Positions 1 to 5,100 of a stretch of DNA of 5,682 nt are shown one piece after another. The translations under genes were made by a program, and so were the position numbers. Numbering within the stretch: position 1 is the stretch's first letter; the number at the start of each line of letters is the position of its first letter. The DNA comes from Escherichia coli (GTDB lineage Bacteria > Pseudomonadota > Gammaproteobacteria > Enterobacterales > Enterobacteriaceae), in the NCBI RefSeq assembly GCF_003334785.1, contig NZ_QOWV01000042.1, one strand, 5' to 3'. The notes under the pieces are model-generated. The model ran no database searches and was not told the origin of the DNA. It was given only the letters and a program-made list of their open reading frames with translations.

Positions 1-68
1 GGTCATCGCCGAAACTGACGGTTTTCAGACTCTTGATCTCATCGTCCAGATAGCGGTTCAGCTCGAGG
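1..68. repeat. Partial copy of the same 75-bp repeat unit at the window start
   Basis: Positions 1-68 are near-identical to repeat units at 5163-5230. The array of copy A continues beyond the window edge. Confidence 0.85.
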
Positions 69-229
69 TGTTCATAATCTTCACTGACGCTAAAACTCTT
101 AACATTTTGTAGCATCTTATATTCGTACTTCAGCTTCTCTATTAACTCATTACTTAAATCATCAAGAGCATCATGGTCATATTTCGATGACATCAGATGC
201 GATTTTTTAATCATAAATCTGCCATCCAT
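1..229 (-). CDS. Acidic tandem-repeat protein, copy A, N-terminal part only (3' end beyond window start)
   Basis: ATG at 229-227 (minus) with SD AAGGAG at 241-236 and a 6-nt spacer, 13 nt after the stop of the upstream PIN-like gene. Hand translation of 229..2 is open throughout: MDGRFMIKKSHLMSSKYDHDALDDLSNELIEKLKYEYKMLQNVKSFSVSEDYEHLELNRYLDDEIKSLKTVSFGDD. The last residues are the first copy of the 25-aa repeat seen in full at 5101-5652. Not in the ORF track because it has no stop inside the window. Confidence 0.6.
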   Translation of the reverse strand, partial: MDGRFMIKKSHLMSSKYDHDALDDLSNELIEKLKYEYKMLQNVKSFSVSEDYEHLELNRYLDDEIKSLKTVSFGDD

Positions 230-242
230 ATGATACTCCTTC

Positions 243-1427
243 TTACTCTGTTATTGATGAAAGGATTGAGCTCATCTTCTGAATAGAAGATAACTTTCCT
301 TTCATTAGAAGTCTAATTTTAGCCATTATCTCAGGATCTGTCGCAGATTCTAGCTTTTTAGATAGACCAGCAATTTCTGCCTTTTCTCTTTTTATTCTGT
401 TTTCTAGGAGTGCTCGGTGTTCACTGTTGCTTGTGTTACTTCCAGCTCCATACCCATTCCCTGTTGAAATGTTGAGGTTTTCGGTGTTTATTTTAAGATC
501 GAATGCGTTGTTTATATTTAAGATTAGTTCTTTTGTGTTTATTACATCAAAAAATTGAACGCTTGAGTTATTTAGCATTTCCTCTCTTAATATAGCGTGA
601 ACGCCTTTGTTTTCTCTATTTTCTTTATCTCTACCAACTTTAAATATGAAGTCATCTTTTGCATCATTAGTGATTAGGAAAACGTTTTTCGCACCTGTTG
701 ATGCGGCATGCTCTAGAGTTTCTTTCCATATGTAGAAATCACCATAAGCTCTTTGATAAGTAATGCCGTCATAAGAGAATATATTGTCTGGCTTTCCTAC
801 CTTGTCTGCGTCACAGAATCCAGGGGGCGTTTTTAATTCATACCTTGATTTACATTCAGCATCTAATCCATTAATGTATTCTTGGTCCTTTTTTACGCCT
901 ATTTTTCCAGAGAATATGTTGTCAATCCATTCTCTATGTATGTCTTTTGTATTTAACTCATCAATTGATTCATTGAGTTTTCCATACATATCCTCTAGTC
1001 CTGAGTTTAATAAATCAATGGATTTTTTTATTAACTCAGATACTTGTCTGTTTAGCCCTTCGTAATGCCTTGCTTTGGAGTTGTTGCATTTTTCTAATAG
1101 TTTTGATGAATAAGATAATAAATCAACAACAGGAGATGTTGTTGTTGATATCAAGTGTTTCTGATCGTCGATAACCCCTAATCTTCTTCTCTGATACTCC
1201 AACGCAGTAAAATAAGGGAGATATATATTTTCTCTTATCTGTTCTATTGATTTCTTTATCGCAGATATTGTTTCCTGGTTGTTTCTATATAGGTCTAATA
1301 TGACATTGGTGTCAAAAACAAATAATGTATCATCTGCCCTGTATATATCAGGATTGTCCTTTATGTTGCCTGTATAAAATCCTTTAAACATATCCCTCAT
1401 CGACATAAAAAAGCCCCTATTATTCAT
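243..1427 (-). CDS. PIN-like (VapC-type) putative nuclease with a large internal insertion and a C-terminal coiled-coil tail
   Basis: Long minus-strand ORF (track 243..1493, stop TAA at 245-243). Contains FDTNVILDL (first PIN acidic motif), a conserved Glu in TALEYQ about 38 residues later, and LITNDAKDDF (the T-x-D-x-D-F motif typical of VapC/PIN) about 215 residues after the first Asp, implying an inserted domain. The track's first codon at 1493-1491 is TTG, not ATG. In-frame ATGs at 1472, 1427 and 1406 are alternatives; 1406 has a GGGG SD-like run 7 nt upstream. A perfect TTGACA on the minus strand at 1469-1464 could be a -35 element. The gene is strongly AT-rich compared with the plasmid backbone. 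Confidence 0.7.
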   Translation of the reverse strand: MNNRGFFMSMRDMFKGFYTGNIKDNPDIYRADDTLFVFDTNVILDLYRNNQETISAIKKSIEQIRENIYLPYFTALEYQRRRLGVIDDQKHLISTTTSPVVDLLSYSSKLLEKCNNSKARHYEGLNRQVSELIKKSIDLLNSGLEDMYGKLNESIDELNTKDIHREWIDNIFSGKIGVKKDQEYINGLDAECKSRYELKTPPGFCDADKVGKPDNIFSYDGITYQRAYGDFYIWKETLEHAASTGAKNVFLITNDAKDDFIFKVGRDKENRENKGVHAILREEMLNNSSVQFFDVINTKELILNINNAFDLKINTENLNISTGNGYGAGSNTSNSEHRALLENRIKREKAEIAGLSKKLESATDPEIMAKIRLLMKGKLSSIQKMSSILSSITE

Positions 1428-1501
1428 TTCTGTTTTGTTCTTTTCGTCAGTTGCTGACTCTTGTGTCAACATCAAAATCAATCGATCATGCAAATGATCT
1501 C

Positions 1502-1530
1502 TTGAGATTCCTTTTTTCTACGCGTAATCT
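1502..1530 (+). promoter_or_regulatory. RNA II (replication primer) promoter
   Basis: -35 TTGAGA at 1502-1507, 17-bp spacer, -10 TAATCT at 1525-1530. This matches the ColE1/pMB1 RNA II promoter arrangement. Confidence 0.8.
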
Positions 1531-1542
1531 TTCTTCCTGTAA

Positions 1543-1646
1543 ACGAAAAAACCACCCTGGCAGGTGGTCTTTTCGAAGGTTAGATAATCCTGGCAGATTC
1601 TCTAACCGTGGTAACAGTCTTGTGCGAGACATGTCACCAAATCCGT
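1543..1646 (-). ncRNA. RNA I, antisense copy-number control RNA
   Basis: Minus-strand promoter with -35 TTGAAG (complement of 1682-1677) and -10 TACACT (complement of 1658-1653). Predicted start is near 1646. Intrinsic terminator is the hairpin at 1551-1568 followed on the minus strand by a U-run (complement of 1545-1550). Length is about 100 nt, as expected for RNA I. Confidence 0.75.
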
Positions 1647-1652
1647 CCTTTC

Positions 1653-1682
1653 AGTGTAGCCTCACTCAGGCCACCACTTCAA
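1653..1682 (-). promoter_or_regulatory. RNA I promoter
   Basis: Same hexamers and position relative to RNA II as in pMB1/ColE1 (TTGAAG, 18-bp spacer, TACACT). Confidence 0.7.
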
Positions 1683-2049
1683 GAACTCTCGATACATCTC
1701 TCGCACATCCTGTTTACCAGTGGCCGTTGCCAATGGCGATTAGTCGTGTCTTTTCGGGTTGGACTCAAGACGATAGTTACCGGATAAGGCGCAGCGGTCG
1801 GACTGAACGGGGGGTTCGTGCATACAGTCCAGCTTGGAGCGAACTGCCTACCCGGAACTGAGTGTCAGGCGTGGAATGAGAAACCGCGGCCATAACAGCG
1901 GAATGACACCGGTAAACCGAAAGGCAGGAACAGGAGAGCGCACGAGGGAGCCACCAGGGGGAAACGCCTGGTATCTTTATAGTCCTGTCGGGTTTCGCCA
2001 CCTCTGACTTGAGCGTCGATTTTTGTGATGCTCGTCAGGGGGGCGGAGC

Positions 2050-2060
2050 CTATGGAAAAA
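2050..2060 (+). other. Origin of replication (RNA II to DNA transition, oriV)
   Basis: The motif gcggagcctatggaaaaa lies about 520 nt downstream of the RNA II start, corresponding to the ColE1 primer processing and DNA start point. Confidence 0.65.
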
Positions 2061-2299
2061 GCGCCTGCGGCGCGGCCTTTTTCGGGGTTTCCGTTTTTGC
2101 GCACATGTTCTTTCCCGGGTTATCCCCGGATTCTGTGGATAACTGTGTTACCGTTTTTGTGTGAGTCAGTACCGCTCGCCGCAGCCGAACGACCGAGCGT
2201 AGCGAGTCAGTGAGCGAGGAAGCGGAAGAGCGCCGGAAGCTACATTTTCTCCTTACGCATCTGTGCGGCATTTCACACCCGGCATGGTGCACTTTTCAT

Positions 2300-2400
2300 A
2301 CCATCCGCACTGATGCTGCATGAGTAAGCCAGTATACACTCCGCTATCGCTACGTGACTGGGTCATGGCTGCGCCCCGACACCCGCAAGGTCAACGGCCT
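2300..2400 (-). other. bom / oriT (basis of mobility) with nic region
   Basis: taagccagtatacactccgctatcgctacgtgactgggtcatggctgcgccccgacacccgc is near-identical to the pBR322/ColE1 bom region and lies between ori and rop as in those plasmids. The nick is expected on the minus strand within the complement of taagccag (2325-2332). Confidence 0.7.
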
Positions 2401-2477
2401 GACGCGCCCTGACGGGCTTGTCTGCTCCCGGCATCCGCTCACAGGCAAGCTGTGACCGTCTCCGGGAGCTGTATGTG

Positions 2478-2669
2478 TCAGAGGTTTTCACCGTCATCAC
2501 CGAAACGCGCGAGGCAGCTGCGGTAAAGCTCATCAGCGTGGTCGTGAAGCGATTCACAGATGTCTGCCTGTTCATCCGCGTCCAGTTCGTTGAGTTTCTC
2601 CAGCAGCGTTAATGTCTGGCTTCTGATAAAGCGGGCCATGTTAAGGGCGGTTTTTTCCTGTTTAGTCAC
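2478..2669 (-). CDS. rop: Rop/Rom, RNA I-RNA II pairing modulator
   Basis: 63-aa ORF MTKQEKTALNMARFIRSQTLTLLEKLNELDADEQADICESLHDHADELYRSCLARFGDDGENL, recognised as the Rop protein. It converges on RNA II, as in pBR322. Confidence 0.95.
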   Translation of the reverse strand: MTKQEKTALNMARFIRSQTLTLLEKLNELDADEQADICESLHDHADELYRSCLARFGDDGENL

Positions 2670-2701
2670 TGATGCCTCCGTGTAAGGGGGGATTTCTGTT
2701 C

Positions 2702-3058
2702 ATGGGGGTAATGATACCGATGAAACGCGAGAGGATGCTCACCATACGGGTTACTGATGATGAACATGCCCGGTTACTGGAACGCTGTGAGGGTAAACAA
2801 CTGGCGGTATGGATGCGGCGGGTCTGCCTGGGTGAGCCGGTTGCCCGTTCCGGGAAGCTGCCGACACTGGCACCGCCGTTACTGCGCCAGCTGGCTGCCA
2901 TCGGGAATAACCTGAATCAGACAGCGAGGAAGGTGAACAGCGGGCAGTGGTCTTCCGGCGACCGGGTTCAGGTGGTGGCCGCACTGATGGCCATCGAGAG
3001 AGAGTTGCGCAGCTTACGGCAGGTCGTCAGGGGACAGGGAGCGCGGGATGATAGTTAA
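2702..3058 (+). CDS. mbeC: Mobilization accessory protein MbeC (MobC family, ribbon-helix-helix)
   Basis: Translation ...MLTIRVTDDEHARLLERCEGKQLAVWMRRVCLGEPVARSGKLPTLAPPLLRQLAAIGNNLNQTARKVNSGQWS... matches the ColE1-family MbeC fold. The 5' part is colinear with the mob remnant retained in pBR322. Start is uncertain among ATGs at 2702, 2711, 2720 and 2735; 2702 has an AAGGGGGG run about 10 nt upstream. The stop overlaps the mbeA start. Confidence 0.8.
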   Translation: MGVMIPMKRERMLTIRVTDDEHARLLERCEGKQLAVWMRRVCLGEPVARSGKLPTLAPPLLRQLAAIGNNLNQTARKVNSGQWSSGDRVQVVAALMAIERELRSLRQVVRGQGARDDS

Positions 3059-3424
3059 GTTTCATGCCAGGGGGAAAGGTGGTGGCAGTGGTCCGGTTGA
3101 TTACCTTCTGGGAAGGGAGCGTAACCGGGAAGGTGCAACGGTACTGCAGGGTAACCCGGAAGAAGTCCGGGAACTCATCGATGCCACGCCATTTGCGAAG
3201 AAATATACGTCCGGTGTTCTGTCGTTCGCGGAGAAGGAACTGCCGCCGGGAGGACGTGAAAAAGTTATGGCGAGCTTTGAGCGTGTACTGATGCCCGGTC
3301 TTGAAAAAAATCAGTACAGCATCCTGTGGGTGGAGCACCAGGACAAGGGACGGCTTGAGCTGAATTTTGTCATTCCGAACATGGAGCTACAGAGCGGAAA
3401 ACGCCTCCAGCCGTACTACGACCG

Positions 3425-3476
3425 GGCAGACAGGCCGAGAATTGATGCCTGGCAGACAGGCCGAGAATTGATGCCT
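3425..3476. repeat. Exact 26-bp tandem duplication inside mbeA
   Basis: Two perfect adjacent copies of ggcagacaggccgagaattgatgcct, followed by a further partial copy ggcagac. 26 is not a multiple of 3, so the duplication shifts the frame. Confidence 0.9.
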
Positions 3477-3761
3477 GGCAGACGCTGGTTAATCACCATT
3501 ACGGGCTGCATGACCCCAACGCCCCGGAGAACCGCCGGATACTGACTCTCTCTGATAACCTGCCGGAAACGAAACAGGCGCTTGCAGAGAGCGTCACACG
3601 CGGGATAGACGCTCTTTATCATGTCGGGGAGATAAAAGGCCGTCAGGATGTGATTCAGGCGCTCACAGAGGCAGGGCTTGAAGTGGTCAGGGTGACGCGA
3701 AGCAGTATCAGCATTGCAGACCCGAACGGTGGGAAGAATATCAGGCTGAAAGGAGCATTTT

Positions 3762-4292
3762 ATGAGCAATCTTTTACAGACGGGCGCGGAGTTCGAGAAA
3801 AAGCTGAAAGAGAGAGCCGAATCTACAGAGACAATGCTGAACGACGAGTTCAGGAAGCTCGAAGAATCTGTAAACAGGGAGCTGACCTCAAACGAATCTT
3901 TAATCAGGAACGCTATCAACGACCATACAGCAGCCCTGAAAGAACTTCTGGAGAGGTATCAGAAAACGACCGTCAGCACGATGGACACACACTGGCAAAC
4001 CGTGCTGAAAATGAGCGTGAAACGCTGGCTGTGGCTGATTATCGTCTCAGTACTGATGTTTGCCACGACCGGGAGTCTGCTGTGGTACCAGGGCATGAAG
4101 ATAAACGAGAATATGAATATTCTCCGCGAGCAGAAAGAGAGTCTGGAGAAGCTGAACGCGAAGACATGGGGCGTGCGTTATCACGAGGACAGCAACGGAC
4201 GTTTTCTGGTGTTGCCGAAGGGGATGAAAGCCGAAACGAACTGGACGAAGGACAACGGCAAACTGAACGCAGTGAGACTGGTGCAGGAGTGA
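3762..4292 (+). CDS. mbeB: Mobilization protein MbeB (nested within mbeA in an alternative frame)
   Basis: 176-aa ORF starting MSNLLQTGAEFEKKLKERAES with a hydrophobic segment WLWLIIVSVLMFATTGSLLW. RBS AGGAG is 6 nt upstream of the ATG. Overlapping arrangement inside mbeA is as in ColE1. Confidence 0.8.
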   Translation: MSNLLQTGAEFEKKLKERAESTETMLNDEFRKLEESVNRELTSNESLIRNAINDHTAALKELLERYQKTTVSTMDTHWQTVLKMSVKRWLWLIIVSVLMFATTGSLLWYQGMKINENMNILREQKESLEKLNAKTWGVRYHEDSNGRFLVLPKGMKAETNWTKDNGKLNAVRLVQE

Positions 4293-4298
4293 CAGAGC

Positions 4299-4532
4299 AT
4301 GACGGAGCTGGAAAGACATTTGCTGAACGCCTTAGAGCAACTGCAACAGGACTATATGCAGCGGCTGAACGAATGGGAGAGCGCCTTCGTGGAATTGCAG
4401 AAAATGTTTTCGCTTACGCAACGGGACAACGCGATGCTGAACGAGCGGGTCATGCAGTTGAGTCAGCAGGTGCAGCACTTGAGCGAGCGGACAGAACGCT
4501 TGAGCCAGTTATACAGCGAGAACAGGAGATAA
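4299..4532 (+). CDS. mbeD: Mobilization protein MbeD (nested within mbeA)
   Basis: 77-aa ORF MTELERHLLNALEQLQQDYMQRLNEWESAFVELQ..., predicted coiled coil. AGGAG lies 9 nt upstream of the ATG. Position immediately after mbeB is as in ColE1. Confidence 0.7.
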   Translation: MTELERHLLNALEQLQQDYMQRLNEWESAFVELQKMFSLTQRDNAMLNERVMQLSQQVQHLSERTERLSQLYSENRR

Positions 4533-4632
4533 GGGACGAACGGCTGATACAGGAGCGCGAACATGCGTTATCCCTGGAGCGTGAGCGCCAGCCGGAAATA
4601 CAGGAACGCACACTGGATGGCCCTTCGCTGGG

Positions 4633-4839
4633 ATGGTAATCAGAGACAGGCTAAAATGTTGTCAGCGCGTTTCCGGTGCATTTTTTGGGATAATGGTTGG
4701 TTCGGGGGCACCGGGAACGCGCTTCAGTCAGACCTTGCTGAAAACACAGGAACGCGTTAAAACGCATACGGGCGCGATTCTGGTGTATCTTTTGTTGCTG
4801 TGTTTTGCCGTTATTGCCAGATCGCGCTCATTCCCCTGA
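4633..4839 (+). CDS. Small hydrophobic protein, possible MbeE
   Basis: 68-aa ORF whose ATG overlaps the mbeA stop (ATGGTAA) and which has a hydrophobic stretch ILVYLLLLCFAVIA. No convincing SD. Assignment is by position only. Confidence 0.3.
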   Translation: MVIRDRLKCCQRVSGAFFGIMVGSGAPGTRFSQTLLKTQERVKTHTGAILVYLLLLCFAVIARSRSFP

Positions 4840-4879
4840 ATTTCTGTTTTTCCGCTCCGGTTCCGTCTTCTGCCTTTCC

Positions 4880-5090
4880 GAAAGTATGAAAAAAATCCGT
4901 TTCAGCAGTCTCTGGCTGGAAATTCCTGCGTGATTCACATGGCTGCATAGCTATGCATGTGGTTAAAATTTACCGGGTGCGATCGCGGCAGTTTTTCGGG
5001 TGGTTTGTTGCCATTTTTACCTGTCTGCTGCCGTGATCGCACCGAACGCGTTTCAGTGGTGCGTACAATGGGATGTTATGGTAAATGGCT
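4880..5090. other. cer-like XerCD multimer-resolution site with upstream accessory sequences
   Basis: Core ggtgcgtacaa-tgggatg-ttatggtaaat at 5058-5086 resembles the ColE1 cer XerC arm, central region and XerD arm. Upstream sequence gcggcagtttttcgggtggtttgttgccatttttacctgtctgctgccgtgatcgc and the palindrome tgcatagctatgca resemble the cer accessory and ArgR-box region. Confidence 0.7.
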
Positions 5091-5100
5091 CTCGCTAGTT

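Follow-up and report, generated by a model that had tools for sequence, protein, structure and literature searches.

The closest described counterpart of the locus analysed here is the ColE1 mobilization system, consisting of the MbeA relaxase and the mbeABCD(E) genes together with their oriT. The relaxase is commonly lost or truncated in the ColE1 family: only approximately 39% of ColE1 plasmids encode one, and 11 of 352 relaxases are truncated (PMC8683028). ColE1-like plasmids in which the relaxase is disrupted while the oriT is kept are a recognised minority (Ares-Arroyo et al. 2021, PMC8683028; Hanke et al. 2024, PMC11229322), and ColE1-type mbeA genes are mis-called as pseudogenes by PGAP in 487 cases (PMC11229322). 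A ColE1-type oriT without a working relaxase is also found in bom+ mob- vectors such as pBR322 and in orphan-oriT plasmids that are mobilized by a relaxase supplied in trans (Finnegan and Sherratt 1982, cited in PMC9282650). Perfect intragenic tandem duplications that cause a frameshift and whose precise loss restores the gene are known from phase variation of the cap3A (Waite et al. 2001, via PMC11163986) and phcA (Poussier et al. 2003, via bioRxiv 10.1101/2023.04.27.538605) genes.

The window, by which is meant the whole stretch of DNA that was analysed (5,682 bp), is 100% identical outside of a 75-bp repeat array to plasmid RCS83_pIII of E. coli ECOR 10 (NZ_LT985292.1, 5912 bp), and represents this plasmid or an identical sibling. 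It resembles ColE1 in its gene order, its RNAI, the relaxase residues Y19 and H97-x6-E104-x-N106 and, once its mbeA gene is repaired, a full-length match to the ColE1 MbeA family model. It differs from ColE1 in that mbeA is frameshifted after codon 137. The disrupted relaxase and retained oriT are shared with the truncated ColE1-like plasmids, and the absence of a working relaxase beside a ColE1-type oriT with the pBR322-type vectors, although the window still encodes MbeC, MbeB and MbeD and has a known host without an MbeA donor plasmid. While many of the mbeA pseudogenes in the databases are annotation errors on intact genes, that of the window is a true frameshift. The evidence set out below indicates that it is very probably a recent, one-off loss-of-function mutation in the MOBP5/HEN relaxase gene of a ColE1-type plasmid. 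The features on which this reading is built are as follows.

1543..1645, minus strand: RNAI of the ColE1-type replicon (Rfam RF00106, 76.5 bits)
2290..2480, minus strand: oriT (bom) region, with the nic-like core TATACTGGCTTA at 2325-2336 on the minus strand
2478..2669, minus strand: rop, 63 aa
2735..3058, plus strand: mbeC, coding for an intact MobC-family relaxosome accessory protein of 107 aa (PF05713 MobC, PF21983 NikA-like) and overlapping the start of mbeA
3048..3545, plus strand: truncated mbeA ORF as written, 165 aa, the exact protein being WP_140410903.1 / HAM3705230.1
3425..3450, plus strand: copy 1 of the 26-bp unit GGCAGACAGGCCGAGAATTGATGCCT, native mbeA sequence beginning within codon 126
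3451..3476, plus strand: copy 2 of the 26-bp unit, the inserted duplicate, which shifts the mbeA frame by +2 and is not found in the relatives L002, L003, L011 and L034
3477..3483, plus strand: GGCAGAC, the downstream ancestral 7-bp direct repeat, here a partial third copy
3446..4639, plus strand: remaining part of mbeA, the native frame of which stays open between the duplication and the natural stop
3762..4292, plus strand: mbeB, which codes for 176 aa in a different frame inside mbeA and is preceded by a strong Shine-Dalgarno sequence (AAGGAG)
4299..4532, plus strand: mbeD, likewise nested within mbeA, coding for 77 aa and matching NCBIfam NF033829 at 118 bits (cutoff 60)

The genes are arranged in the order rop, oriT, mbeC and mbeA, the last of which contains the nested mbeB and mbeD, and the window also holds a PIN-like gene and a repeat-protein gene. 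The original prediction, made from the sequence alone, held that the duplication inactivates mbeA and leaves the remainder of the mobilization module intact, and the second half of this proposal is well supported. MbeC is encoded by a full-length 107-aa ORF which matches the MobC and NikA-like Pfam families, and the nic-like core of oriT is conserved, being common to 29 of the 34 related loci. The exact MbeB and MbeD proteins of the window, WP_001483786.1 and WP_000137440.1, respectively, are also encoded by plasmid pSCU-105-4, which codes for an intact MbeA of 521 aa, showing that both nested genes are unaffected by the duplication. The oriT region is near-identical, inclusive of a variant at 2387-2398, to that of pAPHA_2019_2, where mbeA is annotated as intact in RefSeq. 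We take the nick in the window to lie between 2329 and 2328 (CTGG/CTTA), as in the pBR322/ColE1 nic. Since oriT, mbeC, mbeB and mbeD are unaltered, mobilization should still work where MbeA is supplied in trans. Both mbeB and mbeD are provided with their own Shine-Dalgarno sequence, and a polar effect of the premature mbeA stop on their expression is possible.

The variant at 2387-2398, situated some 60 nt from the nic-like core, reads GCAAGGTCAACGGCC in the window and GCTAAAACCCGC in the sister metagenome contig L034. It is a common natural allele, and its identity in pAPHA_2019_2 suggests that bom undergoes patchwise recombination. Further downstream, at approximately 5057-5087, the sequence GGTGCGTACAATGGGATGTTATGGTAAAT resembles the core of cer, the site at which XerCD resolves ColE1 multimers.

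Direct string comparison confirmed that the 26-bp unit occurs twice as an exact tandem duplication at 3425-3476, where it had been placed originally, with period-26 identity extending from 3425 to 3483 exactly. Tandem Repeats Finder reports 2.3 copies with a period of 26, 100% matches and no indels for 3425-3483, and the chance expectation for an exact adjacent 26-mer repeat in 5.7 kb is in the order of 1e-12 (5682 x 4^-26). GGCAGAC at 3425-3431 pairs with GGCAGAC at 3477-3483 as a 7-bp microhomology, and this third, partial copy following the two complete ones indicates that the single-copy ancestor contained 7-bp direct repeats spaced 26 bp apart. Such a single-copy arrangement, GGCAGAC-N19-GGCAGAC, is seen in most of the related loci examined. 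Short direct repeats are the usual substrate of replication slippage. In an ancestral mbeA with two GGCAGAC repeats at this spacing, slipped-strand mispairing during replication would have allowed the nascent strand to re-pair with the upstream GGCAGAC, so that the 26 bp between the repeats would be duplicated and 26 nt (a +2 shift) added after codon 137. Hairpin-assisted slippage was considered and dropped, since folding of the 53-nt ancestral segment is no more favourable than that of shuffled sequence (z = -0.83), no notable hairpin being present; the slippage explanation accordingly has the 7-bp direct repeats as its only basis. Rfam returned no match at the duplication, RNAI being the sole match in the window. 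The mbeA lesion is probably an ordinary slipped-strand frameshift in a well-known gene family.

The identity of the gene as mbeA, as originally proposed, is borne out by the NCBIfam model NF047848 ('relax_MbeA_E1', cutoff 500 bits). Deletion of one 26-bp copy produces an MbeA ORF of 521 aa which matches this model across residues 1-513 at 890 bits, whereas the product as written reaches 338 bits over residues 1-137 only and falls under the cutoff. The 165-aa product comprises 137 native residues followed by 28 out-of-frame residues and terminates at a TGA stop at 3543-3545. In the native downstream frame, the earliest possible start is a GTG at 3650 (native residue 193), giving an ORF of 329 aa to 4639, with no evident Shine-Dalgarno sequence before it. 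The 165-aa fragment and separate C-terminal ORF anticipated by the original prediction were thus both recovered, at 3048-3545 and 3650-4639, and the family alignment agrees with its placement of the frameshift after Tyr19 and the H97/E104/N106 motif. Programmed ribosomal frameshifting was also considered as a means of reading through the lesion. Inspection of 3425-3545 by eye revealed no programmed frameshift signal (X XXY YYZ heptamer or prfB-like CUU UGA) and no relative carries the extra 26 nt. Moreover, any shift past the duplication would still garble the residues from 138 onwards, including N140, D147, P148 and P151.

The product as written retains the catalytic Tyr19, S59-F60 and the metal site H97/E104/N106. 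Among 138 aligned family sequences the motif I catalytic tyrosine Y19 is invariant, as are W94, H97, E104, S213 and G227, while N106 is conserved in at least 90%. Motif III, H-x6-E-x-N, is represented in the window by WVEHQDKGRLELNF and replaces the HxH histidine triad, in agreement with the description of the HEN motif in PMC9282650. The break at residue 137 removes the invariant S213 and G227, along with 17 further columns at which conservation reaches 90% or more. A search of 1.84 billion representative proteins recovered 2,640 homologs, of which those at 41-58% identity align without interruption over residues 1 to approximately 285. The AlphaFold2 model is consistent with these limits: pLDDT is approximately 95-98 for residues 1-230, a lower block is found near 231-240 and confidence is regained up to approximately 290, while residues 300-414 are predicted to be disordered and 412-505 to form a long helix. 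In this model residues 1-110 contain the full set of three catalytic motifs as well as the five core beta-strands, and the break falls within a helix spanning residues 125-142. The HUH-type relaxase fold was recognised by structure prediction and fold search. A PDB sequence search with the repaired MbeA gave no match at E <= 1. As the Pfam nuclease-domain match (PF03432, residues 51-127) lies wholly inside the fragment, it could be read as indicating that the whole domain is retained; this reading is countered by the family conservation and the model, both of which extend the module to residues 285-290 or thereabouts. From this module the fragment lacks some 150 conserved folded residues, together with the entire C-terminal half of the protein.

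It had been suggested that the truncated fragment might retain nicking activity. In a wider form of this reading, the fragment would nick oriT either alone or, in a split-relaxase arrangement, together with a C-terminal polypeptide restarted from GTG 3650, and mobilization or another function dependent on nicking would persist. The retained active-site residues, the five core beta-strands and the position of the Pfam match are in favour of such an activity. Several observations, however, make a functional split or truncated relaxase highly improbable. If translation restarted at GTG 3650, neither polypeptide would contain residues 138-192, and these include N140, D147, P148, P151, P164, G185 and R190, each of which is conserved in at least 90% of the family. 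The restart codon has no Shine-Dalgarno sequence, the break interrupts a helix of one continuous high-confidence module, and the solved relaxase domains matched in the fold search are 183-282 residues in length. Natural full-length homologs, furthermore, always keep residues 1 to approximately 285 as one stretch. The suggested nicking activity is thereby weakened, and its retention by the 165-aa fragment appears unlikely on the strength of the alignment and the model. On the same grounds we infer that the MbeA relaxase as written is non-functional: 28 wrong residues and a stop would follow residue 137, with the catalytic residues kept and the rest of the module gone. Since MbeA is truncated, the plasmid should no longer be capable of nicking its own oriT and piloting it.

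The age of the lesion can be gauged from its intact relatives. The repaired mbeA shows no differences over 1566 nt to the intact genes of the metagenome contigs L011 and L034, and no stop codons have accumulated in the downstream native frame, so that the lesion is very recent in evolutionary terms. L034 shares the same backbone, and the window region 2322-5130 differs from it only by the 26 bp and the short oriT patch at 2387-2398. Of the two possibilities raised by the original prediction, a recent lesion or an on/off switch for mobilization, it is the former that is favoured by the evidence.

The distribution of the two-copy allele was established with a 47-mer junction probe (3431-3477) designed to contain no 28-nt exact word in common with the single-copy allele; a 160-nt query is unsuited to allele counts, as its overlapping pieces cover single-copy records to 100%. 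Only one of the 72,556 PLSDB plasmid records, NZ_LT985292, contains the junction 47-mer, and it is found in none of 5,426 complete E. coli genomes. A junction-specific 24-mer likewise had no exact match in metagenome contigs or species-representative genomes. By comparison, 794 PLSDB records and 648 records from the complete E. coli genomes contain the mbeA segment around the site, while a longer query of the mob region matched 1,152 PLSDB records. The single-copy, wild-type junction occurs in several hundred plasmid records as well as in 31 metagenome contigs, nearly all of which code for a full-length MbeA of 514-532 aa. Copy-number variation at the site was not seen among the relatives, with all close relatives being single-copy. 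In the collections searched, the duplication is private to one plasmid lineage.

These counts bear on the proposal of a reversible switch, in which the duplication would be gained and lost by slippage at appreciable rates and the multicopy plasmid population would toggle between a Mob-on and a Mob-off state. Precise loss is possible for a perfect tandem duplication, and with the downstream frame intact, the loss of one copy would restore the wild-type gene and could restore MbeA function. Precedents of duplication and reversion are available in pneumococcal cap3A (PMC11163986) and Ralstonia phcA (bioRxiv 10.1101/2023.04.27.538605). In these systems the duplications arise repeatedly and revert measurably, whereas the window allele is a singleton in all of the collections searched. 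The two-copy junction is restricted to one lineage, set against several hundred to approximately 1,150 related PLSDB records, the 648 E. coli genome records and the 31 metagenome contigs. Most of the related loci examined share the 7-bp repeat substrate, yet they display no variation in copy number at the site. The two-copy allele is, moreover, the consensus in all three assemblies in which it occurs, and the ancestral segment contains no significant hairpin. The switch is consequently highly improbable, as is a heteroplasmic form of it, in which a minority of molecules with one copy would maintain low-frequency mobilization of the plasmid and of the co-resident pII, and the host would be spared continual nicking by the relaxase. 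If reversion does take place, the plasmid would provide a simple system in which to measure the loss of a tandem duplication on a multicopy plasmid through the selection of transconjugants.

The duplication is identical in three assemblies, namely the window (5682 bp), NZ_LT985292.1 (5912 bp) and contig DABQXL010000055.1 (5200 bp; GCA_014451455.1), the last of which is 100% identical to window positions 1-5187. The small plasmids of ECOR 10 were obtained by transposon-based sequencing of purified plasmid DNA, with gaps filled by Sanger sequencing (PMC6202452), and the transposon-based sequences are taken to be Sanger reads. That the duplication is a sequencing or assembly artefact and the true plasmid has one copy is extremely unlikely, the least probable of the readings weighed here: the window and NZ_LT985292 do disagree elsewhere, in the 75-bp repeat array, but the duplication is the same in three assemblies of different length, one produced by transposon-based sequencing and another a short contig from a third-party assembly, and the structure, at 59 bp, would fit within any normal read and is not a homopolymer. 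A single strain may be the source of all three assemblies, in which case the mutation could have arisen during laboratory storage.

ECOR 10 was isolated from human faeces in the 1970s-80s, is sensitive to antibiotics and contains three small plasmids but no large plasmid that could be typed (Branger et al. 2018). No second MbeA and no conjugative plasmid were found in this strain, with pI and pII encoding no MbeA homolog. By analogy with the bom+ mob- plasmids, transfer of pIII is expected only if a co-resident plasmid supplies the Mbe proteins. Helper plasmids of the IncF and IncI1 types, such as F and R64drd11, are efficient in mobilizing ColE1-like MOBP5 plasmids (PMC6856555). As ECOR 10 is without a conjugative helper, selection on mbeA would be relaxed, and loss of the gene is probably neutral in this host. 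Plasmid pII (NZ_LT985291.1, 2999 bp) contains the nic-like TATACTGGCTTA and no mob genes, and thus represents an orphan ColE1-type oriT. Lacking mob genes of its own, pII would depend on the MbeA of pIII in trans, and the duplication in pIII may immobilise pII too, affecting two plasmids at once.

The lesion is of practical interest mainly for plasmid typing. RCS83_pIII is typed as 'mobilizable, MOBP' by MOB-suite in PLSDB, while the original publication types it as MOB_RNA and counts it among the mobilizable plasmids (Branger et al. 2018). The mobilizable call can be ascribed to the N-terminal relaxase motifs, which are still detected, and is probably an over-call. Typing on the presence of a relaxase over-calls the mobility of plasmids with frameshifted genes, the opposite error being the annotation of an intact mbeA as a pseudogene. 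The biological significance of the lesion is small, with the window representing one more ColE1-type plasmid caught shortly after the loss of its relaxase. It is a clean example of such a loss, since a metagenome contains the same allele in intact form on the same backbone.

The annotation of related plasmids is also uneven. In the PLSDB gene tables, an intact mbeA coding for 521 aa is absent for L002 (CP057080.1), L003 (NZ_CP051742.1) and most of the mob-region matches, where a gap in the locus tags is found instead, in keeping with the known PGAP mis-call of mbeA as a pseudogene, while newer RefSeq annotation names mbeA genes of the L002/L003 type 'plasmid mobilization relaxase MbeA'. Two other truncated MbeA proteins of 165 aa, P0207 and P0237, carry different lesions, and their equal length is a coincidence. 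In P0237, residue 116 is fused to read-through of the oriT region, indicating a deletion derivative. Where these two truncations are fusions or deletions, the lesion in the window is a clean 26-bp duplication with the rest of the sequence intact.

The 75-bp array, which codes for a 25-aa repeat, occupies 5125-5621 and continues across the start of the window (positions 1 to ~70) on the minus strand, with 6.6 copies at 91% identity. The repeat protein, which reads ...LNRYLDDEI[K/M]SLKTVSFGDDHEL..., is annotated as a 'hypothetical protein' of 308 aa in NZ_LT985292, and its sole NCBIfam match is sub-threshold and probably spurious. The length of the array differs between the window, NZ_LT985292 and L034. 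The last 87 bases of the window (5596-5682) resemble a diverged first repeat or an alternative 'head' of the repeat gene and matched nothing in PLSDB, in the complete E. coli genomes or in any of the loci compared, inclusive of the otherwise identical NZ_LT985292. When the window is circularised, a stop at the junction splits the repeat gene; the array may have been collapsed or joined wrongly at 5596-5682, or the variant may be real. Positions 243-1472 on the minus strand, immediately after the repeat-protein gene, code for a PIN-like protein of 409 aa (Pfam PIN_8). The same pair of genes is also present on the metagenome contigs L011 and L034, and may constitute a two-gene accessory or defence-type cargo.
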